Below, one piece after another: positions 7,004-21,516 of a DNA stretch of 32,075 bases. The notes under the pieces were generated by a model. The model saw nothing but the letters and a program-made list of their open reading frames with translations. It ran no database searches and was not told where the DNA came from. The translations under genes were made by a program, and so were the position numbers. Every line of letters begins with the position of its first letter. Position 1 is the stretch's first letter. Origin of the DNA: Pseudomonadota bacterium (GTDB lineage Bacteria; Pseudomonadota; Alphaproteobacteria; UBA9219; RGZA01); the NCBI GenBank assembly GCA_016195205.1, contig JACQAB010000066.1, positions 1 to 32,075 on the forward strand. Direction: 5' to 3'.

Positions 7004-7125
7004 GGTCTGTCCTCATAAACAGCCGGAAAGACGCGAGCGTAAACAAAGGCCTACCCTATAAAGGAATTATCAATTTTTATGTCGCAAACATAGGCCTGGC
7101 CCCTGCTCCCGGGGCAGGAGGCAAA

Positions 7126-7806
7126 ATGGACGACCTAAGAATGAGCCAGAACACCCGCGCGCCCCAGCAAACCGAGGCGCAGAAAAAGTTCGGCGTCGAA
7201 TATTACCACCCGGGGCAGCAGGTCATCTCAGGTTCACGCGACGGCGATCTTTACACCTACACCACCTATATCGGCACGTATCTGGTGAACGTGGAAAAAG
7301 GCGACTGCGCCTATACCTACGACGGCAAGGGCATGGCGCATGTGCAGCCGGGCCCCTGCAAGATTCAGTCTACTCTTATCACCACCGTGATCCGCGGCTA
7401 TGCGCCGGCCCTGCGCTCGACCGCGGTGGGCCGCTCCACCTATCTGCCTTATGTGAATGGCTGCTCGACCCGCCAGGTGTTCACGCCCGACCGCATTGGC
7501 GATCCCACGCTTCAGCTGCTGCATATGCCGCCGCATAGCAGCGAACAGGTGCATCACATCCATTCCACCGCGCGGGTGGTGCATGTGCTGGAGGGGCGCG
7601 GGCGCTCGCTGGTCGGCATGGAGCAATGGGTGGAAAAGCAGGAGCTGGTGCCGGGAATGTCGATCATTCTGCATCCCATGTGCCCGCATCATTTTGAAAC
7701 GGACGATAATTCGCTGCTGGTGCTGCCGCTGCATATCTTCAGCTCGCCACCCGGCGGAACCGAATTCGACCATCCCATGTTCAACGGGACGCACCGGATT
7801 GGATAA
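7126..7806 (+). CDS. Cupin-fold metalloprotein (unknown function)
   Basis: 226 aa with SD AGGAGG 5 nt upstream of the ATG. Two-motif cupin signature: HHIHSTARVVHVLEGRG (HxH...E...G) and VPGMSIILHPMCPHHFET (PxG...H). Confidence 0.7.
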   Translation: MDDLRMSQNTRAPQQTEAQKKFGVEYYHPGQQVISGSRDGDLYTYTTYIGTYLVNVEKGDCAYTYDGKGMAHVQPGPCKIQSTLITTVIRGYAPALRSTAVGRSTYLPYVNGCSTRQVFTPDRIGDPTLQLLHMPPHSSEQVHHIHSTARVVHVLEGRGRSLVGMEQWVEKQELVPGMSIILHPMCPHHFETDDNSLLVLPLHIFSSPPGGTEFDHPMFNGTHRIG

Positions 7807-7922
7807 GTTTCCAGCTTGAGCTAAAAAGAGAATGGCCGCGCCACGCGTAGCTGCGGCAGGAAGCCCGTCTTCGCCCTTCGGGCTACGCCGGGCACGCTTC
7901 GCGCGCTACCGCTTGCGAAGCG

Positions 7923-7967
7923 TGGTGGACAATACAGGGCTCGAACCTGTGACCCGCTGATTAAGAG
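7923..7967 (-). repeat. Orphan 3' half of tRNA-Lys (CCA end to anticodon loop); att-like direct repeat
   Basis: tggtggacaatacagggctcgaacctgtgacccgctgattaagag matches 15448-15492 at 44 of 45 positions (hand alignment). The adjacent sequence cannot supply a D-arm or the 5' acceptor strand, so this is not a functional tRNA. Confidence 0.85.
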
Positions 7968-8131
7968 CCCCGCCCATAGCTTTCTATAATTTTTCGATTT
8001 CAATCTCAACAATTTGATTCAGTTCGATAAAGGGAAGAATCGCCTATCCCGTTTGTTCTCTAAAAATCCCTCGGAAACCCGCCTTTTCTTGGCACGATTA
8101 CACGGAAATTACACTGAGTTTTTTGAAGTGA

Positions 8132-8569
8132 TTAGGATTTATACTTTAGGAGCTTAGCCCTGATGAAATGAGCCAGCGACAGCTTGCCGGGGCCGAAGCA
8201 CAGGAGGGTGGCCAGCAGCATCGCCCAGTAGAAATGCTCCATGTTGCTGTCATAGGTGAACTGGATGACGGCAACCATCGCCAGCATCGGCAGGGTGGCA
8301 AGTCGCGCTCCAAGTCCCAGCACCAGCAGCACCGGGCAAGCCAACTCGAAACTGGTGGCAAATAGCGCCGCAAGTGAAGGCGGCAGCAAGGGAACGTGAT
8401 ATTCTTCCTTGAAGAGATAGAGAGTGTTACCCCAATCCTCTATCTTCACCATGCCGGATTGCCAGAAAATCTTGGCCATCCATAGCCTTGCCGCCAAAAG
8501 AACGAGATTTCCCAATTCCTGCAACATGGCTAGGATGCGGGTGGCGGCTTTGACGCAGGCTGGATGCAT
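8132..8569 (-). CDS. DoxX family membrane protein
   Basis: Multi-TM protein with a DoxX-like sequence (LLAARLWMAKIFWQSGMVKI...ELACPVLLVLGLGARLATLPMLAMVAVIQF). The ORF-track start at 8623 lies upstream of the predicted ECF promoter's transcription start, so I prefer the ATG at 8569 (MHPACVKAATR...). Confidence 0.8.
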   Translation of the reverse strand: MHPACVKAATRILAMLQELGNLVLLAARLWMAKIFWQSGMVKIEDWGNTLYLFKEEYHVPLLPPSLAALFATSFELACPVLLVLGLGARLATLPMLAMVAVIQFTYDSNMEHFYWAMLLATLLCFGPGKLSLAHFIRAKLLKYKS

Positions 8570-8609
8570 GGCGCGGTTTCCCTTCGCGTCGTTCGTTATC
8601 TTTAGTTCC

Positions 8610-8636
8610 TTCGGTTTAGGCATCGTTTTGGTTACA
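8610..8636 (-). promoter_or_regulatory. ECF (SigF/ECF16-like) promoter motif TGTAACC-N16-CGAA upstream of DoxX
   Basis: The minus strand reads aTGTAACCaaaacgatgcctaaacCGAAgg with an exact 16-nt spacer. It is one of three identical-architecture motifs in the window. Confidence 0.6.
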
Positions 8637-9199
8637 TGAATACGGAAAAGAACCCTTTAAATCCTGAAACCGGGAATGAACGGCTGGAAATCCTCATGTC
8701 TCTTGCTCTTGCGGGAGACAGAAAGGCCTATGAGCGGGTTTTGCGCCTTGTTAGCCAGCGGTTAACCGTTTTTCTTGGCCGGAAGCTCCCCGCCAAAGAC
8801 CGCGACGATGTGATGCAGGAGATTTTGCTTTCCATTCATAAGGCCCGCCATACCTACGATCCGGCCAGGCCGCTGATGCCCTGGGTTATGGCCATTGCCC
8901 GCTACCGGATGCATGACCATTGGCGGCGGCATTACGGCCATTCTTTCGATGAAATGGCCGATATTGAGGATTTAAAAAATATTTTGAGCACGGACATAAC
9001 CGAAACCCTTCATGGTAACGAAGATATAAGAAGGATACTTGTGACCTTGCCGGAGCGGCAGCAGGTAATCCTTGAATTGATGTACCGGCAGGACAAAAGC
9101 GTGCGGGAGGTTGCCAAACAGTTAAAAATGAGCGTTTCGGCGGTGAAAGTCGCGGCGCACCGGAGCTACAAGATTTTCCGCAAACATCTGAAAGCGTAG
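8636..9199 (+). CDS. ECF-type RNA polymerase sigma-70 factor (SigF/ECF16-like)
   Basis: 187 aa. Region 2 (DDVMQEILLSIHKARHTYDPARPLMPWVMAIARYRMHDHWRR) and region 4 HTH (LPERQQVILELMYRQDKSVREVAKQLKMSVSAVKVAAHRS). It is followed 5 nt later by a DUF1109-type anti-sigma. An alternative start exists at 8696. Confidence 0.85.
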   Translation: MNTEKNPLNPETGNERLEILMSLALAGDRKAYERVLRLVSQRLTVFLGRKLPAKDRDDVMQEILLSIHKARHTYDPARPLMPWVMAIARYRMHDHWRRHYGHSFDEMADIEDLKNILSTDITETLHGNEDIRRILVTLPERQQVILELMYRQDKSVREVAKQLKMSVSAVKVAAHRSYKIFRKHLKA

Positions 9200-9204
9200 A
9201 AGAA

Positions 9205-9843
9205 ATGTCGAAAACCGATGAAACCATAGGCAGTATTTTAGCTACGGCTACGCCGGTTAAAACAGCGCAGCCCATGCGCCTTTTGCTGGGCTGGCTTGCC
9301 GTGACGGTGGTGGGAACGTTTTTGATGGTGCTGTTCATGGCTCCCCGTGATGATCTTGCCCTGCAACTGGCCTCGCCATTGTTCCTTGCGGAAACAATTC
9401 TCTTGATAGCCCTGATTGTCACTTCGGCATTTGTCGCAGTCTGCCTCTGCTTTCCCGATATGTGTCAAAGGCATTGGATGCTTTATGCGCCGCTCCTGCC
9501 GCTGGCGGCTTATTCTGCGCTGCTCGGCTACCAACTCGTGCATCCGGAAATGGTGGCGCTGCCTGCCGTTAAGATGGGCGGCGTTGATTGCGCCTTATGC
9601 ATCAGCATGTTTGCCGTTATTCCGGGGTTCTGGATGTTTCATATCTTGCACCGCCATGCCACCACCCACCCGATCCTTGCCGGGGCCGTATCCCTGCTAA
9701 CAGCGTCGAGCATCGGGCACCTGGTGCTTAAATTCGTGGAAAAAAACGATGCTATCTCGCATCTGGCCTTATGGCATTTCCTGCCGATCTTGCTGCTGGC
9801 GGCTGTTGGCGCCTTTTTGGGCAGGAAATTTTTATCTTGGTAG
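9205..9843 (+). CDS. DUF1109 / NrsF-like membrane anti-sigma factor
   Basis: 212 aa with about six predicted TM segments and several Cys residues, sitting directly downstream of the ECF sigma. This is the standard partner arrangement of the SigF-NrsF type. Confidence 0.7.
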   Translation: MSKTDETIGSILATATPVKTAQPMRLLLGWLAVTVVGTFLMVLFMAPRDDLALQLASPLFLAETILLIALIVTSAFVAVCLCFPDMCQRHWMLYAPLLPLAAYSALLGYQLVHPEMVALPAVKMGGVDCALCISMFAVIPGFWMFHILHRHATTHPILAGAVSLLTASSIGHLVLKFVEKNDAISHLALWHFLPILLLAAVGAFLGRKFLSW

Positions 9844-9845
9844 CG

Positions 9846-9872
9846 TGTAACCGCTTTCTCTCAGGGCACGAA
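9846..9872 (+). promoter_or_regulatory. ECF promoter motif TGTAACC-N16-CGAA upstream of the precursor peptide gene
   Basis: cgTGTAACCgctttctctcagggcaCGAAtag with an exact 16-nt spacer. It lies about 60 nt upstream of the ATG at 9932. Confidence 0.65.
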
Positions 9873-9931
9873 TAGAAAATTATGCAGGCACTCTTCGCTT
9901 GCCGTTAACAACCATCCTCAAGGAGAAAATC

Positions 9932-10204
9932 ATGAATAAGACCGTTCTATGCGCCGCTTTGGCGGGGGTTTTGGCCGCTGGTATGGCCGGAAGCGCTTAT
10001 GCCGCCGACATGCCCAACAAGGAAAAATGTTACGGCATCGCCAAGGCAGGAAAAAATGACTGCAAATCCATGAGCGGCTCGCACTCCTGTGCCGGTCATT
10101 CCACGAAGAACTATGATCCGGGCGATTTCAAGGTGGTCAACAAAGGCCAGTGCGAAAAGCTGGGCGGCTCTCTGGCAGCCCCCGAAGCAGCTCCGGCTGA
10201 GTAA
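9932..10204 (+). CDS. DUF2282-type secreted 4-Cys precursor peptide (bufferin/GigA-like)
   Basis: 90 aa with SD AAGGAGA 5 nt upstream of the ATG at 9932 (the ORF track extends to a TTG at 9899). Signal peptide MNKTVLCAALAGVLAAGMAGSAYA, then EKCYGIAKAGKNDCKSMSGSHSCAGHS...NKGQCEKLGG, which matches the DUF2282 signature as I remember it. Confidence 0.85.
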   Translation: MNKTVLCAALAGVLAAGMAGSAYAADMPNKEKCYGIAKAGKNDCKSMSGSHSCAGHSTKNYDPGDFKVVNKGQCEKLGGSLAAPEAAPAE

Positions 10205-10217
10205 GGCTTTTGGAAGG

Positions 10218-10240
10218 GCATGGCCTGAACAGGGCCATGT
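10218..10240 (+). terminator. Hairpin between the precursor and MNIO genes (possible partial terminator or attenuator)
   Basis: GCATGGCC tgaacag GGCCATGt followed by ctttccggcttt. An 8-bp stem including one G-U pair; the U-tract is poor. Confidence 0.3.
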
Positions 10241-10255
10241 CTTTCCGGCTTTATC

Positions 10256-11122
10256 ATGAATCATTCTGCTTATCCTTATCTTGGCTTCGGGCTTGGCCTT
10301 CGCGCCCCGCATTATGAACAGGTTTTGCGCGAACAGCCTGATGTGGACTGGTTCGAGATCATCTCGGAAAATTTCATCGATGCCCATCAAGGCTATTGGG
10401 ATTATCTTGCCGATCTGCGCTGTGATTACCCGCTGGTGATGCATGGTGTTTCACTGTCCATCGGCAGCCCCGATCCATTGAACCAGGAATATCTGCGCAA
10501 ACTAAAAAAACTGGCGGATTTTATAAAACCGGCATGGCTTTCCGATCATCTTTGCTTCACCGGGCTGGGCGGCCATAACACCCACGATCTGTTGCCTTTG
10601 CCCTATACGCAGGAAGCCCTGCGCCATGTCATTGCGCGTGTGGACGAGGCGCAGGAGCGCCTTGGGCGCGTCATCGTACTTGAAAATCCCTCGACCTATT
10701 TTGAATACCGGCAATCCGAACTGGCGGAGTGGGATTTTTTGCGCGAGTTGGCGAAAGCCACCGGCTGCGGGATTTTGCTGGATGTGAACAATGTTTACGT
10801 CAGCGCCTTCAATCACGGTTTTGATCCGAAAACCTATATCGACGCCATTCCCGCCGAAGCCATCGCCCAAATCCATCTGGCCGGACACAAGAATAAGGGA
10901 ACGCATATCGTCGACACGCATGACGCGCCCGTGATTGAGGATGTATGGGGTTTATACGCCACCACCATCGCGCAAAAAGGCAGTATCAGCACGCTGATCG
11001 AGTGGGATGAAAATATCCCGCCGTTGGCAACCCTGCTTGCTGAAATGGAGAAGGCCCGCGCATTTATTCAAAACAAAACTCCCTCCAAACGCGCCCGTCA
11101 TGACTTACACGAATATGCTTGA
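10256..11122 (+). CDS. DUF692 family MNIO enzyme (MbnB/BufB-like)
   Basis: 288 aa. LGFGLGLRAPHYEQVL...VDWFEIISENF...LVMHGVSLSIGS...PAWLSDHLCFTG...VLENPSTY...LLDVNNVYVSAFNHGFD...IAQIHLAGH is the characteristic DUF692 TIM-barrel pattern. Confidence 0.9.
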   Translation: MNHSAYPYLGFGLGLRAPHYEQVLREQPDVDWFEIISENFIDAHQGYWDYLADLRCDYPLVMHGVSLSIGSPDPLNQEYLRKLKKLADFIKPAWLSDHLCFTGLGGHNTHDLLPLPYTQEALRHVIARVDEAQERLGRVIVLENPSTYFEYRQSELAEWDFLRELAKATGCGILLDVNNVYVSAFNHGFDPKTYIDAIPAEAIAQIHLAGHKNKGTHIVDTHDAPVIEDVWGLYATTIAQKGSISTLIEWDENIPPLATLLAEMEKARAFIQNKTPSKRARHDLHEYA

Positions 11123-11885
11123 GAAAGTGCAGGATTCCATCATCAGCGGCGATGCCGGGGTTGCGGCCCCGTTGGTGCGGCCAAACCCACGGCTTTCAGC
11201 CTCCGCGTTGCTTGGTATTTATATCGAAGGCTACCGGATAAGGCTTTCGCAGGCGGTGCGCTCCGATTATCCCTGTCTTGCCCATTATCTGGGTGAAGAG
11301 CGGATGAATGGGCTGGTTGCCGCCTATGTGAAAAAAACGCCTTCGTGTTCCTATAATCTCGATCACTACCCCTTCGCCTTCCGCCGTTTTGTCGCACAAG
11401 CTTGTGAGGATGAAGCCGCCCATGCGCTGGCGGAACTGGAAGGCGTGATGGCAGAAGTCTTTATGCTGCCGGAAAGCGCGCCGATGGATTTTGAAAGCTT
11501 TGGCAGCCTCGATGCCGAAAGCCTTGGCCGTATGAGCTTTGCATTACGTTCTGCCGGGATGCTCATCCGGCTTGCCTATGACGCGGAAGCTTATTTACAG
11601 GCCTACAAAAAGGGCGAAGCAGAAAAAGATATTCAGAAACGCCCGGCCCATCTCTACCTTTACCGGCACGATAACGAAGTGAAGCGGCAGCAACTTGAGA
11701 TAGCCGAATATCAGGTGTTAAGCGCCCTTGGCCACGGAGAAAGTTTCAGCGCCGCTATTGAAACGGCGCTGGCTTCGCACATTTACGCTGCCGCTGCCTT
11801 GGCAGAAAAAATCCGGTCGTGGCTGCCGAAATGGATCGGGCAGGGCTTCTTCGCCCATACGGAAAGGGTGAAAAAATCGGTGTAA
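11100..11885 (+). CDS. DUF2063 domain protein (MNIO partner, BufC-like)
   Basis: Follows and overlaps the DUF692 gene. N-terminal pattern LLGIYIEGYRIRLSQAVRSDYPCLAHYLGEERMNGLVAAYVKKTP fits DUF2063. The start is ambiguous (11100 or 11115); the track start at 11007 would overlap by 116 nt. Confidence 0.75.
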   Translation: MTYTNMLEKVQDSIISGDAGVAAPLVRPNPRLSASALLGIYIEGYRIRLSQAVRSDYPCLAHYLGEERMNGLVAAYVKKTPSCSYNLDHYPFAFRRFVAQACEDEAAHALAELEGVMAEVFMLPESAPMDFESFGSLDAESLGRMSFALRSAGMLIRLAYDAEAYLQAYKKGEAEKDIQKRPAHLYLYRHDNEVKRQQLEIAEYQVLSALGHGESFSAAIETALASHIYAAAALAEKIRSWLPKWIGQGFFAHTERVKKSV

Positions 11886-11907
11886 CCAAGCGGGCCGTGC
11901 CGCCGAA
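11881..11907 (+). promoter_or_regulatory. ECF promoter motif TGTAACC-N16-CGAA upstream of the small Cys ORF and mer-like genes
   Basis: gTGTAACCaagcgggccgtgccgcCGAAtaa with an exact 16-nt spacer. It overlaps the TAA stop of the DUF2063 gene. Confidence 0.6.
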
Positions 11908-11969
11908 TAACAATGAAAGGCCATGCGATATGGCTTGAGAAAACCATACCAATCCAAGGGAGAAAGTTC

Positions 11970-12098
11970 ATGTCCATGATGTGCAAATCCGGCGCGTGCC
12001 GAGCCAAGAGTGGCCCCTGCATCCATGAAAAACTGATGCTGGCGATGATGGTTATAGCCATCCCGCTTTTAGGACATTTCGCGTTTCACTGGTTTTAA
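11970..12098 (+). CDS. 42-aa Cys-rich membrane-anchored peptide (hypothetical)
   Basis: SD AAGGGAGA upstream of the ATG at 11970. MSMMCKSGACRAKSGPCIHEKLMLAMMVIAIPLLGHFAFHWF has three N-terminal Cys plus one TM helix. The track ORF begins earlier at 11913 without an SD. Confidence 0.45.
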   Translation: MSMMCKSGACRAKSGPCIHEKLMLAMMVIAIPLLGHFAFHWF

Positions 12099-12110
12099 CA
12101 AAAATCCATC

Positions 12111-12461
12111 ATGACGCCGCAACTGGGTTGGAAGGAATCGCTTTTTGGAAGCGTATTGGCAGCCATAGGAGCTTCTCTATGCTGTGTCGCTCCTTTGGCG
12201 CTTCTGGCCGTGGGTATTAGCGGGGCCTGGATTGGTTCCCTGACGGCGTTTGAGCCTTACCGCCCCGTTTTCGTGGGCCTGACGCTGCTGTTTCTTGGTG
12301 TGGCTTTTCACAAGCTATATTTTGCGCCCAAAACTTGCGTTCCCGGTAGCCCTTGCGCCGACCCCCGCACCGCCAAGCGTCAGCGCCTGGTATTCTGGAT
12401 TGTAGCGCCGCTTTTGCTTGGTCTGCTCGCCGCGCCCTGGCTTGCCCCGTTATTTTATTGA
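12111..12461 (+). CDS. merT: MerT-like metal (mercuric ion) transport membrane protein
   Basis: 116 aa. A CC pair in the first TM (AAIGASLCCVAPLALLAVGISGAWIGSLTAFEPYRPVF) and a second Cys pair (KTCVPGSPC) line up closely with canonical MerT as I remember it. Confidence 0.85.
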   Translation: MTPQLGWKESLFGSVLAAIGASLCCVAPLALLAVGISGAWIGSLTAFEPYRPVFVGLTLLFLGVAFHKLYFAPKTCVPGSPCADPRTAKRQRLVFWIVAPLLLGLLAAPWLAPLFY

Positions 12462-12474
12462 AAGGAGAGACACC

Positions 12475-12753
12475 ATGCGCCGATTGTTGCTAACCATCAT
12501 GTTCGTTCTGCTATCTTTCGCCGCCAGCGCGGCGGTTCCGCAAACGCTTACCCTCGATGTGCAAAAAATGACTTGCCCTGTTTGTCCATTCACGGTTAGC
12601 GCAGCCCTTGAGAAAGTGCCCGGTGTAACGAAAGCAAATGTTGATTTTTGGGATAAAACCGCGACGGTGACTTTCGATCCTGATAAAACCAACGCCGAGG
12701 CCCTTATCAAGGCCACCACGGAGGCGGGGTATCCATCCTCGGTGAAGCCATAG
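12475..12753 (+). CDS. merP: MerP-like periplasmic heavy-metal-binding (HMA) protein
   Basis: SD AAAGGAGAG upstream of the ATG at 12475, signal peptide, MTCPVCPFTV metal-binding motif, and a C-terminal ATTEAGYPSSVKP nearly identical to the canonical MerP end. Confidence 0.85.
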   Translation: MRRLLLTIMFVLLSFAASAAVPQTLTLDVQKMTCPVCPFTVSAALEKVPGVTKANVDFWDKTATVTFDPDKTNAEALIKATTEAGYPSSVKP

Positions 12754-12771
12754 GAATTGTTCACAGAAAAA

Positions 12772-12999
12772 ATGTCTGTAAAATCCCAATCCACCATCAC
12801 CTGCCCGCATTGCGGCTACCAGAAAACGGAGATCATGCCGGTGGATAGCTGCCAGTTTTTCTATGATTGTCAGGGCTGTCAGGCCGTGCTGCGTCCCAAA
12901 CAGGGAGATTGCTGCGTGTTCTGCTCTTACGGTTCTGTGCCCTGCCCGCCGGTGCAGCAAGCCCGTGCTTTGGAAAGTAATGAGCGGGGCAAGCTATGA
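12772..12999 (+). CDS. GDCCVxC domain protein (small Cys-rich, mer-associated family)
   Basis: CPHCGY...[34 protein letters not shown] contains the GDCCVxC signature. The start is either ATG 12772 or TTG 12757. The stop overlaps the next start (ATGA at 12996-12999). Confidence 0.75.
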
Positions 13000-15344
13000 G
13001 AAGGACCGGTTTTTTTATAGTATGGGCGTCGATCGTGATCTCTATGGCGGCCCATGCAATGGAACCGGAAAAACAAAAACCTAATCGCCTGATTAACGAA
13101 ACCAGCCCTTATCTGCTGCAACACGCCTATAATCCGGTGGAGTGGTATCCGTGGGGCGAAGAAGCTTTTGCCAAGGCGCGCAAGGAAAACAAGCCTATCT
13201 TGCTCAGCATCGGCTATTCCACCTGCTACTGGTGCCATGTGATGGAGCGCGAGACATTCGAGAACGAGGCCATCGCCAAGCTGATGAATGATTCCATCAT
13301 CAGCATCAAGATCGACCGCGAACAGCGCCCGGATGTGGATGAAATCTATATGACCGCCACCCAACTGATGACGCAAAGCGGCGGCTGGCCAAACAATGTG
13401 TTCGTCACGCCCGATCTCAAGCCATTCTTCGCCGGAACTTATTTTTCGCCCGAAGATACGTCTTATCGTCCTGGCTTTGCGACGCTCATCAAGCACATCC
13501 ACGAGGAATGGACAAAAAACCCGGAAGCAATCAAGGAACAGGCGGAGCGTGTGCGCGCCGCGATTGTTTCCTTCAAGCAGGGGGAAAGCCATCAGGTTGC
13601 CACGGCCTTACCGGATCAAAACACTGTCCAAACCCTGCTCGATCATTTTCGGAATAATTACGATAGCCATCTGGGCGGTTTTTATCAGGCCCCGAAATTT
13701 CCCAATGAAGATGCCCTGCTGTTCCTGCTGGCGGCTTACCGGATGAACAATGATGCCCGTGCCTTGGAGATGGCGCAGTTCACGCTCACTAAAATGGCCG
13801 AGGGCGGGATTTACGATCAGGTCGGCGGCGGGTTCCACCGCTATTCCACCGACGCCGAATGGCGCATCCCGCATTTTGAAAAGATGCTTTACAATCAGGC
13901 CCTGCTTGGCCGTGCCTATACGGAACTTTATTCTTTCTCGAACGCGCCTCTTGACCGCGGCATCGCGGCCAGCACCTTCGATTTCGTGTTGAGAGATATG
14001 ACCCATCCGGAGGGTGGCCTTTACTCGGCGCTGGATGCCGAAACGGATGGAGCGGAAGGCGCTTCTTACGCCTGGACGGAAGCGGAGTTGCAGAAAATCC
14101 TCGATCAAAAATCCTATGTCTGGCTGAGCCGGTATTACGGCTTGGCCGACATTCCCCACATACCGGGGCACAAGAACACCGACGGGAAAATCCTTTATCT
14201 GAAACAGCCGGTTGCCAAAATCGCGGCGGCGGAAAAAGTCTCATCCGAGCAAGTCCTTGCCCGGATGCAACCTATCATGGATACCCTGCGCAAGGCCCGC
14301 GATAAACGGCAACAGCCGCGTCTGGACGACAAGATCATCACCGCCTGGAATGGTTTGATGATCGACAGCCTGGCCCGCGCCGGGATGGAGTTAAAAGAGG
14401 AAAAATATACGGAAGCCGCAAAGAAAGCGGCGGATTTCGTGCTGGCCCATCTGCGCACCCCGGACGGGGAGTTGCTGCGCATGTGGCGCGGCGGCAAGGC
14501 CCAGACTCCTGCGTTCTTTGAAGATTACAGCTTCCTTATTCAAGGGCTGGTTTCTACTTATCACGCGACGAAAGACGGGCGCTATCTTGCCGAGGCGGAA
14601 AAACTTGCGCAAAAGGCCAAGGAAATATTCTGGGATAAGGAAGGCGGAGGGTACTTCTATACCGATGGGAATGAGGCGTTGCTGGTGCGCATGAAAAACG
14701 CCGAAGATTCGGCCATTCCTTCCGGCAATGCCATCATGGCACAGGTCCTTCTGGACTTATACGAACTTACGGGCAAGGCCGAATGGAAACAGCAGGCGGA
14801 AGATATGCTCAAGGCCTTCGGCATGGCGATAGAAGCCAATCCCCGAAGCTATACCCATTTGGTGCATGCCTTGCTGCGTCTGGATCACGCCGCGCCGGTA
14901 GCCGACACAACCAGCATGCAGAATGTTGCGGTCGCAGCCGATAAGGACGCCATGTCAACCATGACATGGGTGAAAGTCAGCGTTCCTGAAAACGCGGTCA
15001 AACGTAACACTGATCAGCTTCGCGTGACGGCGGAACTGGATGTTGCTCCCGGCTGGCATGTTAATGCCAATCCCGCCAGCCTGGATTTTCTGGTTTCCAC
15101 CTCGGCGGATTTACGCGAAGATTCAGGAGCGCTGGTCATAAAAGCTGTCCATTACCCCGAAGCCACGGCTATGACAACCCCGTTGGGTCATATTAAAATC
15201 TATGAAGGAAAGATTCTCATCTCCATAGAGGCGCGAGCGCCCAAGGACGCAAAAAATCTCCGCCTTCTTGTCCGGGCGCAAGCCTGCAAGGACACCACCT
15301 GCCTTGCTCCGTCGGACTGGGTGATTAAGTTGCCGGGATCATGA
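12996..15344 (+). CDS. Periplasmic thioredoxin-fold DUF255 (YyaL-like) protein with a C-terminal DsbD-N-like domain
   Basis: 782 aa with signal peptide [43 protein letters not shown] is the DUF255 CxxC thioredoxin motif. The C-terminus ([19 protein letters not shown]...[18 protein letters not shown]) resembles the DsbD N-terminal/ScsB-type Ig-fold domain. Confidence 0.85.
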
Positions 15345-15447
15345 AAAATTTTATTAAGCTCGACACAAAAAGTGTTGCCCCGGATGTTGCCCAGAGGAGG
15401 GGCTGATTTGCATCAACCCCTCAAAATCGGCGTAACCTATTGAAAAA

Positions 15448-15523
<76 letters not shown>

Positions 15524-15527
15524 GCTC

Positions 15528-15616
15528 GTCTTTAGCGACAGGTTTCTGCGGTTCCCGCAACCACCGGTCGCCTTCTTTAGCGATAGGCTCTGCGCTTACC
15601 GCGCAACCGCCGATCG
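15528..15616. repeat. Two tandem imperfect repeats of about 42 nt flanking the tRNA 5' side
   Basis: ctttagcgacaggtttctgcggttcccgcaaccaccggtcg and ctttagcgataggctctgcgcttaccgcgcaaccgccgatcg. The second unit resembles the reverse complement of the 39-nt element found in hemF and pheT. Confidence 0.5.
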
Positions 15617-15687
15617 TTTAAAGAAGCGCTGTTCTAGCGCCTTGCGCACGGGCTGTAAATGCTTTTAAACCGTGGTAAATTCCGGGC

Positions 15688-16617
15688 ATGAACCAGCTGC
15701 GTCTTAAACCGACCCCGCAAAGTCTGCCCACGCCCGCGCAGAAACAGCGTGCCGCGTGTTGGTTCACGGAATTACAGGGGCAATTCTGCGTGGCGCTGGA
15801 AGAGATCGAGCAGGAATATGCCACACAAAAAGGTGGAGCGGTACAAAAATTCCAACGCAAGGATTGGATCCGTGAAACCCACGATAACGTGCCCGGCGGT
15901 GGCGGCAACATGGCCCTGCTCAAAGGCCAGGTATTCGAAAAGGCCGGCGTGAATGCGTCGGAAGTGTTCGGGCAATTTTCAAAAGAGTTTCGCGCACAAA
16001 TCCCGGGTGCCGATGGCGCAGTCGCGGTTGCGCGAAGCGCAGAGCAGTCGCGCCAAGAATATGAAGACGGCGCGTTCTGGGCCGCCGGAATCAGCCTGGT
16101 GGTGCATCCGCGCAACCCGAAAATTCCCGCAGTGCATATGAACACGCGGCACATCGCCACGCGTTTTGGCTGGTTCGGCGGCGTGGCTGATCTGAATCCG
16201 GTTTTCCCCGATGCGCAGGATGTTGAAGCCTTCCACGCCGCGCTGGGGCGCGTTTGCGGCACCGACACCCCCGCCTGGAAAAAGGAATGCGATGAATATT
16301 TCACCATCAAACACCGCAAAAAGCCGCGCGGCGCGGGCGGGGTGTTTTTTGACGATCTGAACCGCGGCGACTGGGAGGCTGATTTCGCTTTGGTCCAGGC
16401 CCTGGGCGAGGCGGTGCTAAAGGCCTATCCGGCCATCGCGCGGCGGCATTTGTTTGAAAGTTACACGCCGGAAGAACGCGAGGCGCAACTGGTGTGGCGC
16501 GGGCATTATGCCGAGTTCAACCTGGTCTATGACCGCGGCACCAAATTCGGGCTGATGACCGGCGGCAATGTCGACGCCGTGCTCATGTCCCTGCCGCCCG
16601 AGGCCAAGTGGCTTTAG
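15688..16617 (+). CDS. hemF: Oxygen-dependent coproporphyrinogen III oxidase
   Basis: 309 aa with GGGGNMALLKGQVFEKAGVN, ISLVVHPRNPKIPAVHMNTRH, RGAGGVFFDDL and YAEFNLVYDRGTKFGL, all typical HemF motifs. It carries an extra segment of about 16 aa (see the repeat at 16016-16054). Confidence 0.95.
   Translation: MNQLRLKPTPQSLPTPAQKQRAACWFTELQGQFCVALEEIEQEYATQKGGAVQKFQRKDWIRETHDNVPGGGGNMALLKGQVFEKAGVNASEVFGQFSKEFRAQIPGADGAVAVARSAEQSRQEYEDGAFWAAGISLVVHPRNPKIPAVHMNTRHIATRFGWFGGVADLNPVFPDAQDVEAFHAALGRVCGTDTPAWKKECDEYFTIKHRKKPRGAGGVFFDDLNRGDWEADFALVQALGEAVLKAYPAIARRHLFESYTPEEREAQLVWRGHYAEFNLVYDRGTKFGLMTGGNVDAVLMSLPPEAKWL
16016..16054 (+). repeat. 39-nt GC-rich element copy inside hemF, in-frame
   Basis: gcgcagtcgcggttgcgcgaagcgcagagcagtcgcgcc matches the reverse complement of 24255-24293 at 38/39 and 21478-21516 at 36/39 (hand alignment). 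It encodes AVAVARSAEQSR in the loop between the conserved IPGA and FWAAGISL. Confidence 0.8.
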
Positions 16618-16623
16618 GTCCCA

Positions 16624-17148
16624 TCAGATAACCGGTACGCCGCCCGTTTTTGGCGGGTTATAGCCCGGAAACAACCCGCCCTGGGAGCGGGTAAAATCAA
16701 CGCGCTCGGGACCGTAGGGAAATATTTCACTTACCAGTTCCAGAACGAGGGAAAGCTGAACATCCGGCAGAGCCTGTTTGTTCGTGAGCGTGGCCCTCAA
16801 CTGTTCCAGTGTTTTTTTCAGCACCTTGCTAGGCGTAGTTGCCGAGGCCCGGAAAACAGGAAGCGCATCGCGCAATGCGTAAAAAGGAATGCGGGTGCTG
16901 CTGAAACGGCGTTTATTCTCATAGGTGGAAAGAAAAACTTCCTGGTTTCTGACTCCAATTTTCAGGGTAAGAAGCCGGTCGGTATGACCGGTGGGAATGC
17001 GCCGTATTTCCGTCAATGCGCTTTTCTTCAACGCTTGTATGGCCGGTTCATCGACAACAATTTTTGCCGCAGCAAGATATTTCCAGACGCTGGGAAGGAT
17101 TTCGATGTCTTCTATGGGTATGGCGGTAGTCGCGCTGGCTTTCGGCAT
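16624..17148 (-). CDS. Hypothetical protein
   Basis: The ORF is 178 aa from a TTG. A GGAG SD lies 6 nt upstream of the ATG at 17148 (MPKASATT...). No recognisable motifs. It is convergent with hemF, 6 nt apart. Confidence 0.5.
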   Translation of the reverse strand: MPKASATTAIPIEDIEILPSVWKYLAAAKIVVDEPAIQALKKSALTEIRRIPTGHTDRLLTLKIGVRNQEVFLSTYENKRRFSSTRIPFYALRDALPVFRASATTPSKVLKKTLEQLRATLTNKQALPDVQLSLVLELVSEIFPYGPERVDFTRSQGGLFPGYNPPKTGGVPVI

Positions 17149-17230
17149 TTTTTGCTCCAAATGAATTGACTATGCCGGGAAAATTAAACGAAACCCAGCG
17201 GCTCGTAAACAGTCTTAATCATTCCAAAAA

Positions 17231-18097
17231 TTAACGGTCTACTTCTTTAAGTTTCGGGCCCAAATCCTCGCGGCGGTCGCGGAAAAACCCAAACGAAGCG
17301 CGGCATTGGCGCAGGAAATCAAGGTCGAAGCGCTGGGTGATCACGCCTTCCTGGATGCCATCCAACTCGGCTACTACCTCACCACGCTGGTCGCAAATGA
17401 AAGACGACCCATAATAGCTTTGCGCCTGGCCAGAAATTTTTTCGGTGCCCACGCGGTTCGCCGCCGCCACCGGCATGGCGTTGCTGACGGCATGGCCCTG
17501 CATGGCGCGCCGCCAGGGATCGCGCGTGTCTAAACCGGCGTCCTGCGGTTCGGAACCGATCGCCGTGGGGTAAAGCAGAATTTCCGCGCCGAGCAACGCC
17601 ATGCCGCGCGCGCATTCCGGAAACCACTGGTCCCAGCAGATGCCCACGCCCACCGCGCCATGCGCCGTGTTCCACACCTTGTAGCCCGTGTTGCCCGGGC
17701 GGAAATAAAATTTCTCGCAATAGCCCGGCCCGTCGGGGATATGGCTTTTGCGGTAAACGCCCATCAGCGCGCCATCGGCGTTCAGCATCGCCACGCTGTT
17801 ATAGTAATGCGGGCCGTCGCGCTCAAAAATCGACACCGGCACGGCCAACTTCAACGCCTTGGCCACCGGCTGCAGTTTTTGCACCGCCGGATGCTCCGCC
17901 GCGGGATAGGCCTGGGCAAACCATTTTTCATCCTGCGTGACGCAGAAATAGGGGCCCTGAAACAGCTCGGGCGGCAGCGCGATTTGCGCGCCGGCCTTGG
18001 CGGTCTTCTCCAGGTAATGCTCGACCTTGGCGATGTTAGCGTTCATGTCTTCGCCAAAACGCGCCTGGATAACGCCGAGGGTAAGGGTTCTTGTCAT
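17231..18097 (-). CDS. aguB: N-carbamoylputrescine amidase (nitrilase/CN-hydrolase superfamily)
   Basis: 288 aa with the catalytic context GVGICWDQWFPE, LPPELF and YRKSHIP. It is adjacent to and co-directional with agmatine deiminase. Confidence 0.9.
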   Translation of the reverse strand: MTRTLTLGVIQARFGEDMNANIAKVEHYLEKTAKAGAQIALPPELFQGPYFCVTQDEKWFAQAYPAAEHPAVQKLQPVAKALKLAVPVSIFERDGPHYYNSVAMLNADGALMGVYRKSHIPDGPGYCEKFYFRPGNTGYKVWNTAHGAVGVGICWDQWFPECARGMALLGAEILLYPTAIGSEPQDAGLDTRDPWRRAMQGHAVSNAMPVAAANRVGTEKISGQAQSYYGSSFICDQRGEVVAELDGIQEGVITQRFDLDFLRQCRASFGFFRDRREDLGPKLKEVDR

Positions 18098-18106
18098 GGG
18101 AGTAAT

Positions 18107-18160
18107 GAGTAGTGAGTAATGAGGAGTGAATCAATACTCACTCCTCATTACTCACTACTC
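18107..18160. repeat. Perfect 23-bp-stem hairpin in the aguA-aguB spacer
   Basis: gagtagtgagtaatgaggagtga / atcaatac / tcactcctcattactcactactc. The arms are exact reverse complements and are internally repetitive (GAGTAATGAG twice). The aguA stop codon (complement of 18155-18157) lies inside the right arm. Confidence 0.85.
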
Positions 18161-19213
18161 GGGCTCCTGCTGCGTGATGCAATGAAACGAGCCGCCGCCG
18201 CTTAAAATCGCATGCGAGGGCAAACCCACCACCTCGCGCCCCGGGAACAGGGGCTTCAGCGCCGACACCGCCTCCTTGCCGCGCGCGTTATACACCGGCA
18301 CCACCACGGTTTTATTGCCGATGATGAAATTCATATGGCTGGCGGCCTGCAGTTCCGGCACCTCGCTGTCGATCCGACCCGGCGAGGGAATGGTGATCAC
18401 CTCCAGATTCATGCCGCGCAGCGCGGTTTCAATTTCTTTCAAGACTGCGGCGTTCGGGTCATCCGCGCCGCTGGCGTGCTGGCAGACCACTTTGCCGGGG
18501 GCGACAAAGCGCGCCAGGTTGTCGATATGCCCGTCGGTGTGGTCGGCGGGCAAGCCGCGCTCGAGCCACAGGATTTTCTCGAAGCCCAGCGCGGTTTTCA
18601 GCGCTTCAGTGGCAGCAGTTTCCGTCCAGCCCTTGTTGCGGTTGGGATTCAGCAGGCATTGGCGGGTGGTGAGGCACAGGCCGTTGCCGTCAAATTCCAG
18701 CGAACCGCCTTCAAGAATGAAATCATGCTTTTGCGTTGGAATATTTGCGGCAGCGGCGATTTTTTCATTCACGCTTTCATCGCCCGGGTAAATAAATTTC
18801 CCGCCCCAGCCGTTGAATTTGAATAGATGCGCAATGGGGGCTGAGGGGCTAGGGGGCTGGGGGGCTGGCAAATCCAATTTTCCCCGAGCCCCCAAGCCCC
18901 CGAGTCCCCGAGTCCCGAATATTGGCCCTGTATCGCGCAGCCAGGTATCGCCATAGGGAATTTCAAAAATTTCGGCGATACCCTTCAATCTTTCCTTGGC
19001 GCTTTGCAGCCCGCCGCCGCAGGCCAGCACTTTTACGTGATCGCCGCCTGACAAGGCGCGGATCATGGCTTCCACCTCGTCCTGCGCCCCTGAAAGCGCC
19101 TCGAACCACGCCTCAGGGTCCCACGGCCAGGCCGTCCAGATGGCCTTATGCGGGGCCCATTCAGCGGGGATGGACGCAGGCGAAGACGGGTTCTGTTTCA
19201 GCGCGGGTTGCAT
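18155..19213 (-). CDS. aguA: Agmatine deiminase
   Basis: 352 aa with WLRDTGPIF, FNGWGGK, HTDGHIDN and the C-terminal GGGSFHCITQQEP catalytic Cys motif. It carries an in-frame repeat insertion (18836-18916). Confidence 0.9.
   Translation of the reverse strand: MQPALKQNPSSPASIPAEWAPHKAIWTAWPWDPEAWFEALSGAQDEVEAMIRALSGGDHVKVLACGGGLQSAKERLKGIAEIFEIPYGDTWLRDTGPIFGTRGLGGLGARGKLDLPAPQPPSPSAPIAHLFKFNGWGGKFIYPGDESVNEKIAAAANIPTQKHDFILEGGSLEFDGNGLCLTTRQCLLNPNRNKGWTETAATEALKTALGFEKILWLERGLPADHTDGHIDNLARFVAPGKVVCQHASGADDPNAAVLKEIETALRGMNLEVITIPSPGRIDSEVPELQAASHMNFIIGNKTVVVPVYNARGKEAVSALKPLFPGREVVGLPSHAILSGGGSFHCITQQEPE
18836..18916. repeat. G-tract/C-tract palindromic element inserted in-frame in aguA
   Basis: gggggctgaggggctagggggctggggggctgg-caaatccaattttc-cccgagcccccaagcccccgagtccccgagtccc is 81 nt (27 codons). 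It encodes GTRGLGGLGARGKLDLPAPQPPSPSAP between the conserved RDTGPIF and FNGWGGK. Confidence 0.8.
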
Positions 19214-19224
19214 TTAAAGACCGA

Positions 19225-19644
19225 TCAGAGCGTGGCCATGATCTGTTTTTTCGCTCTGTATACCGTGGCCAGGTTAGAAAACCCCTCCCGGTTGCTTACG
19301 TCAAGCGCGTTGGCAACCTCGACCGGTGTGGCATTAGAAGTGATTGCGACCGCCAGCCGGTGCGGTGGCCATCCCTTAGCAAGCAGAAACCGGGCATTGG
19401 TCTCAGCTCGGTCAAGTACCCTCCGTAACGCGGCCGCCTGGGCACTGTCCCGGCTCACCAGATATGCTTTCTGGCCCAAGGCAAACGCCCTGGTTTTAAG
19501 CCACGGCCCCAGCCTGCCGGCTTCATAGCGAAGATATTCTCCCCAGTGGCTGCGTCCTTCGAAAACCATCACGTTGGAGGTGACGCAGAACAGGCTTGTC
19601 AGCCTGGCAAAATCCTTATCGGTGCGATTATTTCTTACATCCAT
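19225..19644 (-). CDS. Hypothetical protein (possible C-terminal HTH)
   Basis: 139 aa with SD AGGAGA 5 nt upstream of the ATG. The stop lies 11 nt before the aguA start. No family recognised. Confidence 0.55.
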   Translation of the reverse strand: MDVRNNRTDKDFARLTSLFCVTSNVMVFEGRSHWGEYLRYEAGRLGPWLKTRAFALGQKAYLVSRDSAQAAALRRVLDRAETNARFLLAKGWPPHRLAVAITSNATPVEVANALDVSNREGFSNLATVYRAKKQIMATL

Positions 19645-19733
19645 ATAGCTCTCCTGAAATGCCGGACGAACTTATGGCCTGACTCAACCTGGGGTCAATC
19701 TGAATTATGAGCTTTATACCTTCAAATAGAATA

Positions 19734-19818
19734 GTCATGCCCGCGTAGGCGGGTATCCACGAAAGCCACAGGCTACGGCTTCTGGCCTATCGTGGACCCC
19801 CGCCTACGCGGGGGTGAC
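19734..19818. repeat. Palindromic REP/MITE-like element of about 85 bp
   Basis: gtcatgCCCGCGTAGGCGGGtatCCACGA...TCGTGGacccCCGCCTACGCGGGggtgac. The arms are about 23 nt and nearly perfect. It is intergenic, between the hypothetical gene and the decarboxylase. Confidence 0.7.
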
Positions 19819-19857
19819 ATTGCTTGTGGGGAGGGCTCCCTTAAATGGCAGATATTT

Positions 19858-21273
19858 TTAGAATCCCACCAAGCTTGGCGCGGATTTGCCGTCGCCGTCG
19901 AAGGTGGGCTCGCTTTCCTGCCAGAAGCCCGGCGTGGAAAGCAGCGGGGCGTCGCGCACTTCGACCGGATGGGCCGAGGCGCCGAAGCCGTTGAAGCTGG
20001 ACTGCAGCGCGGCGCTGTAGCCGCCGGTCTGGCCGATTTCGATCCAGTCGCCTTCTTCCACGTCGGCGGGCAGGCTGACGGGCACCTTCAGCGCGTCGAT
20101 GCTGTCGCAGGTTGGGCCCAGCAGGGTGAACTTGGCCATTTTGCTTGAGGGCGTGGGCGCGTCGGGGCGGATCAGGCGCACCGGATAGGTGAGGCGGCTG
20201 ATGCTGGCGTCGAACAAGCCGCCGTATAAACCGTCATTGATGTAAAGCCGGTTTTCCTTGCGCAGATCCACCTTCACCACCAGCGAGCCCGATTCCTGCA
20301 CCAAAGCGCGGCCCGGTTCGCACCACAGCTTGGTTTTCTTGGGCAGCTTCAGGGCTTCGGCGCCCAGGGTGATGGCCTGCATGTAGGAGGCCAGCGAAGG
20401 CGGGGTCAGCCCCGTGAAGCTTACGGGGAAGCCGCCGCCGACATCGACGATGTCGGGGTTGACTCGTGCCAATTGGATCACCTCGCCCACCTGGGCCAGG
20501 GCGGTGGCATAGGCCTCGGGGTTCATCGTTTGCTGGCCCACATGGAAGGCAATGCCGAAGCGCGCGGCCACCTTGCGCGCTTGCGACAGCAATTCCGCCG
20601 CCAGGGGGTTGGCCGCGCCGAATTTGCCCGCGAGGGAATGAAACGCGTGCCCGCCCGAAACCGCCAGGCGCACGATGATGCCCAGGTCTTTGGCGCCGCG
20701 GGTTTCTTCCAGCAGCTTGAACAGCTCCGCCGGACTATCAATCACGAAGTCGCGCACGCCGTAGTGGAAATAGCTTTTGCGGATGGCCTCGCGGCTTTTG
20801 ACCGGATGCATGAAGTGCATCCGCGCCTTGGGGCAAAGCCCGGCCACCAGTTCCACCTCGGCCAGGCTCGCCACGTCAAAGTGGCGCAGGCCCGAGGCCC
20901 AAAGCTGGCGGATCACCAGCGGCGTGGGGTTGGCCTTCACCGCATACATGACGGTGCCGGGGAAATGGCTGAGGAACCATTGGACCGCTGAGTGGATCAC
21001 ATGGCGGCGCACCAGATGGGTGGGTTTTTCGGGGCGGGCCTCGGCCACATAGGCCTGGGTGGCTTCGTAAGACAGGCCGGTACTGCTGCCCAACGGCAGC
21101 GGACGGGAAAGCGCCCTGGCAGCCAAAGCGGCGCGGCGGCTGCCCGAAGGCGCGGAAACGCCCGGCTCAGGCCCGGAGGGCATGAGGTTTTCAGAAGATG
21201 AATCGTAGAAGCGGCTGGACCCTTCCGGTCCAGGAGGCTCTGATTCGTAAACAGGCAGGGATTTGTCGCCCAT
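19858..21273 (-). CDS. Group IV (alanine-racemase-fold) PLP-dependent ornithine/arginine/lysine decarboxylase
   Basis: PLP-lysine motif VMYAVKANP, GGGFPV and the C-terminal LLGPTCDSID motif. SD AGGAGA lies 6 nt upstream of the ATG at 21273; the track start at 21291 is a TTG. There is a long low-complexity N-terminal extension. Confidence 0.85.
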   Translation of the reverse strand: MGDKSLPVYESEPPGPEGSSRFYDSSSENLMPSGPEPGVSAPSGSRRAALAARALSRPLPLGSSTGLSYEATQAYVAEARPEKPTHLVRRHVIHSAVQWFLSHFPGTVMYAVKANPTPLVIRQLWASGLRHFDVASLAEVELVAGLCPKARMHFMHPVKSREAIRKSYFHYGVRDFVIDSPAELFKLLEETRGAKDLGIIVRLAVSGGHAFHSLAGKFGAANPLAAELLSQARKVAARFGIAFHVGQQTMNPEAYATALAQVGEVIQLARVNPDIVDVGGGFPVSFTGLTPPSLASYMQAITLGAEALKLPKKTKLWCEPGRALVQESGSLVVKVDLRKENRLYINDGLYGGLFDASISRLTYPVRLIRPDAPTPSSKMAKFTLLGPTCDSIDALKVPVSLPADVEEGDWIEIGQTGGYSAALQSSFNGFGASAHPVEVRDAPLLSTPGFWQESEPTFDGDGKSAPSLVGF

Positions 21274-21477
21274 CTGGTGTCTCCTCATCAATCGGTACCG
21301 GACTTAAGGCATCCGGCCGCCAACCAACTAAAAGAGACGCGTCGCCACATAAACGCCAGAGGGCCAGGGGTACGTGCGCGTTCGAAGTTATTAAATAAGC
21401 TCCATTCATGAAAATTCAATAAAAATTTTGGGTGGAGAGACATTTTTTTGTGAATCCACCCGGGTGTGTCCCCATGG

Positions 21478-21516
21478 GCGCAGTCGCGGTTATGCGAAGC
21501 GCAGAGCAGCCGCGCC
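21478..21516 (+). repeat. Intergenic copy of the 39-nt GC-rich element
   Basis: gcgcagtcgcggttatgcgaagcgcagagcagccgcgcc matches the hemF copy at 36/39. Confidence 0.75.

Follow-up and report, generated by a model that had tools for sequence, protein, structure and literature searches.

A mercury-type MerT-MerP-GDCCVxC cassette without MerA, placed behind a predicted sigmaF promoter at the end of a Buf1 bufferin gene cluster

Bufferins are periplasmic copper-chelating peptides made by ribosomes and modified after translation (RiPPs) under SigF/NrsF control, and one of them, Buf1, requires one periplasmic disulfide and two modified Cys residues (PMC11626156). First descriptions of their gene clusters date only from 2024-25, and the clusters are reportedly almost without accessory genes: further conserved genes are present only 'in extremely low proportions' (PMC12452194), and the published surveys mention MerC-bufferin fusions in mercury-related clusters, not MerT/MerP, GDCCVxC or DUF255 proteins or the small peptide described below. 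The 32,075-nucleotide contig JACQAB010000066.1 of an alphaproteobacterium (assembly GCA_016195205.1), analyzed as a whole and hereafter called the window, holds a Buf1 cluster that is followed by exactly such genes. Five co-oriented genes with operon-like packing span 11970-15344 and encode a 42-amino-acid (aa) peptide, MerT, MerP, a GDCCVxC-domain protein and a 782-aa protein, the stop codon of the GDCCVxC gene overlapping the ATG of the last gene as ATGA (12996-12999). Judged by its sequence, this module is a mercury-type uptake cassette, of a kind that elsewhere answers to MerR, wired into the general metal-stress response. The region 11882-15344 would form a transcription unit dependent on sigmaF, an extracytoplasmic function (ECF) sigma factor, at the 3' end of the Buf1 cluster. 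This structural and regulatory description of the unit is highly probable; the claim of such a unit taken jointly with the mechanism proposed below stands somewhat better than even. The genes, motifs and overlap listed in an earlier note on this DNA were all found where it had placed them.

Mercury resistance operons of the Tn501/Tn21 type (merRTPADE, e.g., pMOL28) share with the module the merT-merP order and the hallmarks of both proteins. The window MerT (PF02411, 115.7 bits against a cutoff of 32.9) is about 50% identical to Tn501-type MerT and carries both Cys pairs, a CC pair at positions 24/25 in the first transmembrane (TM) helix and a second, cytoplasmic pair at C76/C82; against the NCBIfam MerT equivalog it reaches 116 bits, under the cutoff of 150. 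MerP passes its equivalog model (TIGR02052, 111.8 bits against 92.55) and has the signal peptide, a GMTCxxC-type loop (MTCPVC) and the AGYPSSVK tail (AGYPSSVKP) of its counterparts. The differences lie in what surrounds this pair: the window has no MerR, mer operator, MerA, MerD or MerE, its promoter is of the ECF type, and the GDCCVxC protein occupies the MerA slot. These absences apply to one 32-kb contig window, in which BLASTP with pMOL28 references and iterated hidden Markov models (HMMs) found no MerR, MerA, MerD or MerE among open reading frames (ORFs) of at least 28 aa, and a Pfam scan of the plausible larger ORFs (most at least 110 aa) found none either. The earlier note had reported the same proteins missing, together with MerC, for which no reference of its own was used. 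Likewise, no inverted repeat of the MerR-operator type precedes merT in 11860-12120. Since MerR, its operator and MerA were tested for and not found, the module falls outside the canonical mer operons while using parts of them.

A second group of systems comprises the MerA-less cassettes in which a divergent MerR gene faces MerT-MerP-GDCCVxC, as in Nitrosospira, Vogesella, Bradyrhizobium, Stenotrophomonas and others. They have the same three genes in the same order, their MerT and GDCCVxC proteins are 72-73% and 61-65% identical to those of the window, and canonical MerA is missing in both; they differ in having the Hg-type MerR and in having no small peptide, DUF255/DsbD_N gene or bufferin link. 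The window MerT shares 70-75% identity with the 115-aa MerTs of a large clade found in MerR-controlled cassettes of beta- and gammaproteobacteria, and the contexts checked in this clade, in Nitrosospira (L099) and Vogesella (L101-L103), all showed MerR divergent from MerT-MerP-GDCCVxC with no MerA within 6 kb. On the Ralstonia solanacearum megaplasmid (L084, 7524-9015), MerT of a merR-merT-merP cluster has 72-74% identity with the window protein; this cluster has an AhpD/CMD-family CxxC protein in place of GDCCVxC or MerA, and directly adjoins copABCD and copRS.

The GDCCVxC family is annotated in NCBIfam (NF041374, which the window protein matches with 105.1 bits against a cutoff of 40), and a literature search found no paper on it. 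The window protein has neither a TM segment nor a signal peptide. Nine Cys residues, in a pattern that starts TCPxC...C..FY.C..C, are each at least 99% conserved among 86 sequences, and the N-terminal half bears a weak likeness to C4 zinc ribbons. From at least 546 GDCCVxC loci in the species-genome collection, 80 were retrieved for neighborhood analysis, their genes being called, as in all fetched loci, by ORF heuristics, BLAST and HMMs. Mer-like genes lay within 2.5 kb in 32 of the 80 (about 40%; 26 with MerT, 24 with MerR, 19 with MerP), typically as MerR divergent from MerT-MerP-GDCCVxC, and at least two further loci have a MerC-like membrane protein, one of them with MerR (L004) and one as a fusion (L054). 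Canonical MerA was adjacent to GDCCVxC in none of the 80; one locus (L018) has a separate Tn501-like mer operon about 7 kb off. A Pfam survey of the 46 non-mer loci with a usable upstream ORF revealed no common neighbor, so GDCCVxC occurs in mer-like operons or alone. The lack of MerA, which the earlier note took for an anomaly, is thus a trait of the cassette type and not a peculiarity of the window, because mer-like GDCCVxC loci elsewhere are likewise without the canonical enzyme.

Cys82, Cys117 and Cys126 of MerR (Tn501 numbering) are the Hg(II) ligands that mark a mercury-type sensor. All three are retained in 25 of 25 MerRs adjacent to GDCCVxC cassettes, so these regulators are of the Hg type, and the ancestral signal of the cassette, as read from them, is Hg(II). 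Comparison of the proteins traces the MerT-MerP-GDCCVxC part of the module to Hg-type, MerA-less cassettes, and the change in the window lineage appears as one of regulator: MerR and its operator have given way to a sigmaF promoter, with the promoter and the peptide gene now standing where the divergent MerR stands in the sister cassettes. The earlier proposal that the module had been repurposed consequently holds for regulation and is not supported as stated for substrate, which by default is Hg(II), not necessarily another metal, since the MerRs of the sister cassettes keep all three Hg(II)-ligand Cys residues. Constant positioning behind Hg importers (MerT/MerP or MerC-like) fits a role for GDCCVxC as a cytosolic acceptor, which we infer for the window protein.

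In five loci (L017, L025, L069, L075, and L083; Table 1), a 447-aa pyridine-nucleotide disulfide oxidoreductase lies directly beside the MerT/MerP-GDCCVxC genes, and in four of the five it sits between MerT/MerP and GDCCVxC. These MerA-like matches were rejected as canonical MerA, having no C-terminal CC pair, no NmerA and only 28-33% identity. The oxidoreductase carries an N-terminal CALRGC (CxxxxC) and may act as a minimal Hg(II) reductase, with the CC pair of GDCCVxC serving it in trans. A different arrangement is seen in Methylobacter marinus A45 and M. luteus (L047 and L055; both 9158-10204), where GDCCVxC comes immediately after an ECF sigma gene, in the slot expected for an anti-sigma gene, and, in L047, an MNIO-DUF2063-DoxX cluster lies 1.2 kb beyond. 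In these Methylobacter loci GDCCVxC might be a Cys-rich anti-sigma factor or sensor.

The sigmaF-binding sequence GTAACC-N16-CGAA was set in Caulobacter by 5' rapid amplification of cDNA ends and reporter fusions (PMC3511200; Kohler 2012). The promoter of the module, GTAACCAAGCGGGCCGTGCCGCCGAA, matches it exactly, with its -35 element overlapping the bufC stop codon, so that the ECF-type motif of the earlier note proved real. Allowing up to one mismatch, the window holds three matches (Table 1), all of them exact, against a chance expectation of about 0.06 exact matches (ten specified bases, both strands of 32 kb). All three are intergenic, and each is oriented toward a gene: doxX, bufA and the 42-aa peptide. 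At the same tolerance, no motif was found before the ECF sigma gene itself. The doxX promoter abuts the ATG of the sigma gene, the longest ORFs of the two genes being separated by 12 bp; since this promoter falls inside the longest doxX ORF, the real doxX start is probably M19 of that ORF (8569). The DoxX homolog of a related metagenomic contig (L098) was called at 142 aa.

The locus belongs to the Buf1/SigF type, with extra genes. Clusters of this type (Caulobacter CCNA_03363-66; the gig operons of Cupriavidus and Legionella) share with the window the DUF2282, MNIO, DUF2063 and DoxX proteins, the ECF sigma/NrsF pair and the promoter, and the features of BufA1 agree with those of described bufferins (PMC11626156). 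The window differs in a divergent DoxX gene with its own promoter and in a third predicted sigmaF promoter driving the five extra genes, which makes the module the third transcription unit of the cluster, after DoxX and ECF-NrsF-BufA-BufB-BufC. The Cys-derived RiPP to which the earlier note had linked the module is hence a Buf1 bufferin, tied to it both physically and by regulation. The precursor and maturase genes are separated by a 17-bp-stem hairpin and, after it, a weak run of T, probably an attenuator setting the precursor:maturase ratio.

The association is kept in relatives. A 5.3-kb metagenomic contig (L098) carries all eleven genes in the order of the window, with the ATGA overlap, three exact motifs and proteins 78-95% identical to those of the window; at the peptide-gene promoter the -35 hexamer and -10 tetramer are identical and the 16-nt spacer has diverged. 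Nonsynonymous-to-synonymous ratios (pN/pS) between the window and L098, which are crude counts, are 0.34 for the peptide, 0.35 for MerT, 0.25 for MerP, and 0.11 for GDCCVxC, and these four genes are under purifying selection; the DUF255 gene gives 0.73 over its first 81 codons only, signal peptide included. L002 is distant (BufB 58% identical) and rearranged: ECF-NrsF-BufA and a fused BufBC, with DoxX divergent, are followed by a sigmaF motif, a 39-aa peptide, a heavy-metal-associated (HMA)/MerP-like protein, GDCCVxC and a 125-aa MerT-like protein with CC ... CPx8C, and a DUF255/DsbD_N homolog lies 2.8 kb away behind a resistance-nodulation-division (RND) pump. The doxX and bufA motifs both recur in L002, L089, and L098, and the motif before the peptide gene is kept in position in L098, L002/L003, and L088-L090. 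Since in L088-L090 BufC is followed by the motif and the peptide with nothing mer-like afterward, promoter and peptide form the conserved core, to which mer-type genes have been added in two lineages; only the window and L098 have the DUF255 gene attached as well. In L088/L089, a recombinase and phage-like genes occupy the site after the peptide gene.

TABLE 1. Positions of the module, its promoters and its neighbors in the window, and of related genes in other loci.
Sequence	Feature	Coordinates	Strand	Description
Window	SigmaF-type promoter of module	11882..11907	+	Exact motif match
Window	42-aa peptide gene	11970..12098	+	Cys3/Met/His-rich single-pass membrane peptide, unannotated family
Window	MerT gene	12111..12461	+	MerT-family inner-membrane transporter, both Cys pairs present
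Window	MerP gene	12475..12753	+	Periplasmic HMA-fold metal-binding protein
Window	GDCCVxC-domain protein gene	12772..12999	+	Soluble, nine conserved Cys, zinc-ribbon-like N-terminal half
Window	782-aa protein gene	12996..15344	+	Exported, three-part: DUF255/DsbH-type thioredoxin (CYWC), alpha/alpha barrel, DsbD-alpha/ScsB-alpha-like immunoglobulin (Ig) domain (invariant CxxxxC)
Window	tRNA-Lys(CTT)	15448..15523	-	Right edge of module
Window	DoxX (BufD-like)	8132..8569	-	PF07681, 58.6 bits
Window	SigmaF-type promoter into doxX	8610..8635	-	Exact motif match
Window	ECF sigma factor (sigmaF-like)	8636..9199	+	Sigma70_r2, Sigma70_r4_2, Sigma70_ECF matches
Window	NrsF-type anti-sigma factor	9205..9843	+	PF06532, 110.5 bits
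Window	SigmaF-type promoter before bufA	9847..9872	+	Exact motif match
Window	BufA1 bufferin precursor (DUF2282)	9932..10204	+	PF10048, 82.5 bits; Sec signal peptide, four-Cys core
Window	Hairpin between precursor and maturase genes	10210..10248	+	17-bp stem
Window	BufB, MNIO-family bufferin maturase	10256..11122	+	NF050167, 372 bits vs. cutoff 310
Window	BufC (DUF2063/HvfC-like partner)	11100..11885	+	PF09836, 51.5 bits; weak NGO1945_C match
L017	447-aa oxidoreductase	7479-8822
L025	447-aa oxidoreductase	8634-9980
L069	447-aa oxidoreductase	8637-9983
L075	447-aa oxidoreductase	612-2111
L083	447-aa oxidoreductase	6844-8187
L002	Peptide copy	15484-15365	-
L098	Peptide copy	4006-4137
L104	Peptide copy	1432-1560
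L086-L095	Peptide copies
P0241-P0255	Peptide copies

The 42-aa peptide (MSMMCKSGACRAKSGPCIHEKLMLAMMVIAIPLLGHFAFHWF) has three Cys residues and one hydrophobic helix, and a Shine-Dalgarno sequence, GGGAGA, stands 6 nt upstream of its ATG. It matches no Pfam or NCBIfam model and gave no matches as query in a word-indexed protein search. The family was recovered by a metagenome pattern scan and an exhaustive phmmer search of 1.84 billion proteins, the latter giving 15 representatives of 50%-identity clusters; 13 copies were located in loci. Members of 39-54 aa follow the pattern MS[ML]MC-x-C-x-G[ML]C[IG]HEK, then a TM helix and frequently a GHxxFHWF end; the charge distribution and the positive-inside rule would place the Cys/Met/His head in the cytoplasm. 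The peptide is the first or last gene of Buf1/MNIO clusters in the window, L098, L002, L088-90, L086/87/93, and L104, and belongs to a real, previously unannotated small-protein family that recurs in bufferin clusters. Homologs also lie directly before ECF sigma genes or at most about 800 bp upstream of them (L092, L094, L105), near CcdA and thioredoxin genes (L092/94) and near a redoxin (L106). In L092 (6719-9643) and L094 (6710-8829) the homolog is flanked by divergent genes for CcdA (DsbD_TM) and a periplasmic thioredoxin; the genes that come after it in L092 encode a SoxA/TsdA-type secreted cytochrome (with NPCA repeats), an ECF sigma factor and an anti-sigma factor of the zf-HC2 type.

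The 782-aa protein starts with an AxA-type signal peptide (predicted cleavage before ME), and signal peptides or anchors are also present in homologs whose start codons were called far enough upstream. Its Thioredox_DsbH/DUF255 match (PF03190, 245.8 bits) includes CYWCH, and residues 23-612 match a DUF255 structure comprising a thioredoxin fold and an alpha/alpha barrel (PDB 7TKV, E = 9e-100). The C-terminus matches DsbD_N (PF11412) with 36.8 bits, the cutoff being 25, and its Cys pair, CKDTTC (CxxxxC), is invariant in 49 homologs of 25-62% identity, and CYWC is conserved too. Sequence searches of the PDB with the C-terminal domain gave non-significant matches only, and fold comparison was decisive instead: with an AlphaFold (AF2) model of residues 609-782 (mean predicted local distance difference test score 87.8), the first 19 Foldseek ranks were all ScsB-alpha (6C29) or DsbD-alpha (1JPE, 3PFU, 6DNV, and others). 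The protein shares with DsbD (alpha and gamma) and ScsB/ScsC this periplasmic Ig fold with a Cys pair, a thioredoxin-fold CxxC and the metal-stress setting. It differs in having no membrane beta domain, in the order of its parts (thioredoxin first, Ig last), in the CxxxxC spacing, and in that its thioredoxin part is of the DUF255/DsbH family with an alpha/alpha barrel. Pfam and HMM scans found no DsbD membrane beta domain (DsbD_TM) in the protein or elsewhere in the window. By architecture, it would be an exported thiol-disulfide oxidoreductase with two redox centers and no membrane module. ScsB and ScsC repair copper-damaged envelope thiols, and DsbD passes electrons from its gamma to its alpha domain; these two activities offer the nearest functional analogy.

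The earlier note had counted this protein as part of the cassette, a view that the wider family does not bear out. The DUF255/DsbD_N family is very large, most of the best-scoring homologs listed share the same architecture, and the neighbors vary. The best matches, at about 65% identity, are from Methylococcaceae. Homologs adjoin heavy-metal RND pumps in L002 and L096, lie in an island with SMBP and with GDCCVxC 4.6 kb away in L001, and in L097 and the P0048 contig have housekeeping genes as neighbors. With close homologs in unrelated or RND-pump contexts, the protein was rejected as an intrinsic partner of the cassette. Two GDCCVxC-seeded loci (L045 and L058) have a DUF255 homolog within 10 kb, a proximity that is suggestive only. 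A literature search on DUF255/YyaL found no bacterial functional study.

In such a unit an importer is present but in the absence of a reductase, what would be its role? Envelope metal stress would free the sigma factor from NrsF, and the bufferin would chelate periplasmic metal. In parallel, MerP would capture thiophilic ions (Hg(II), perhaps also Cu(I), Au or Cd), and the ion would pass from MerP to the Cys pairs of MerT and on to the cytosolic nine-Cys GDCCVxC protein, acting as acceptor or sink instead of NmerA/MerA. The exported oxidoreductase could keep the thiols of MerP and MerT reduced or repair metal-catalyzed disulfides, in the manner of ScsB/ScsC under copper stress, and the 42-aa peptide may supply a membrane-proximal thiol/thioether site. 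We hold this transport-and-sequestration mechanism to be an evenly balanced proposition. Several points weigh against it. Metal specificity is not readable from sequence, Hg(II) import without a reductase is expected to sensitize cells, and a reductase may lie outside the 32-kb window. A membrane electron donor of the DsbD-beta or CcdA type was not found in the window. Members of the DUF255/DsbD_N family are often found in unrelated surroundings, and the coupling to the cassette, documented only in the window and the closely related L098, could be recent. Finally, the full arrangement occurs in one narrow lineage and one rearranged relative.

The cassette might instead serve ordinary mercury resistance, feeding Hg(II) to a reductase whose gene lies in another part of the genome (canonical MerA or a short flavoprotein resembling it), with GDCCVxC as a trans-acting NmerA or a substitute for the C-terminal CC and sigmaF as a mere regulator swap. 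The canonical sequences of MerT and MerP and the Hg-type MerR of the relatives agree with this, as does the 447-aa oxidoreductase of five loci, which lacks the C-terminal CC pair that GDCCVxC has. However, a reductase is missing within 2.5-6 kb at most MerR-MerT-MerP-GDCCVxC loci, as it is from the 32-kb window, and we regard this explanation as unlikely. An improbable alternative is that the unit and the bufferin together move Cu(I) into the cytoplasm, for detoxification or for cuproenzyme supply in a methanotroph relative. Bufferins and SigF regulons respond to copper (PMC11626156), the head of the peptide is rich in Met, Cys and His, typical Cu(I) ligands, the 782-aa protein has its closest relatives in Methylococcaceae and a DsbD-alpha-like domain structurally nearest to ScsB-alpha of a copper-tolerance system, and the Ralstonia merRTP cluster lies beside cop genes. 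Yet MerP meets the MerP equivalog cutoff and not a CopZ cutoff, the MerRs of the sister cassettes are three-Cys regulators of the Hg rather than the CueR type, and a stress sigma factor would be an odd controller for an acquisition system.

The remaining alternatives turn on the bufferin cluster itself. The exported oxidoreductase and MerP could manage the redox state of mature Buf1 or its metal loading and unloading; the earlier note had raised such servicing, and although it is possible, this analysis found no support for it. The co-location of the unit with bufABC, the shared promoter type and the need of Buf1 for one disulfide and two modified Cys would suit it, but Caulobacter makes functional Buf1 without such genes (PMC11626156), most Buf1 clusters are without them (PMC12452194), in L089 the peptide occurs without mer or DUF255 genes, and the MerT-MerP-GDCCVxC cassette is found independently of bufferins, so that servicing is a shade less probable than copper handling. 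Least probable is a regulatory role, in which GDCCVxC, the peptide, or both would be metal-sensing modulators of the ECF sigma/NrsF switch and not transport partners. The anti-sigma position of GDCCVxC in the two Methylobacter loci and the peptide homologs upstream of ECF sigma genes would be explained in this way; against it, at least 24 loci have GDCCVxC in MerR operons without a sigma factor, and the window already encodes NrsF. A bolder form of the transport-and-sequestration mechanism joins bufferin and unit into one relay, in which periplasmic metal captured by, or competing with, the thiooxazole peptide would pass to MerP/MerT and the cytosolic Cys9 acceptor, with the DsbD-alpha-type reductase and the Cys/Met/His membrane peptide as obligatory helpers. 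Such a relay is quite doubtful, its standing lying between those of ordinary mercury resistance and copper handling. If true, it would be a RiPP-coupled, reductase-free route for the removal or acquisition of soft metals (Hg, Cu, Au) in methanotroph relatives, and would account for the role of the widespread MerA-less MerT-MerP-GDCCVxC cassettes.

New in this locus are the replacement of MerR by predicted sigmaF control, the joining of the cassette to a bufferin cluster, the addition of an exported DUF255/DsbD-alpha-like protein, and the unannotated peptide family. The locus brings together MerA-less mer cassettes and bufferin regulons, both of them poorly understood. MerA-less MerT-MerP-GDCCVxC cassettes occur in many soil and water bacteria, and a compact, conserved cassette under another regulator offers a handle on Hg(II) import without reduction, as well as a candidate natural module for metal bioaccumulation. 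For bufferins, the locus points beyond copper chelation, to a SigF regulon able to take in a mercury-type importer along with a periplasmic reductase and a previously unnoticed peptide family.

The surroundings of the cluster differ on the two sides of the tRNA-Lys(CTT) gene. To its left (window 1-15523) the G+C content is about 0.51-0.585, and to its right (15524-32075) it is about 0.56-0.65, with housekeeping genes (hemF, speA/aguA/aguB-like genes, pheST, rplT); insertion of an island at the tRNA may account for the left part. Upstream of the Buf1 cluster, four ORFs have no Pfam match (2207-2632, 2654-3097, 3243-4256, and 6410-7003), and the adjacent ORFs 4406-5374 and 5337-6413 show weak PP-loop/Asn-synthase-like matches. 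Genes for a cupin (7126-7806) and for a 414-aa protein containing a cytochrome P460 domain (932-2176) are also present.

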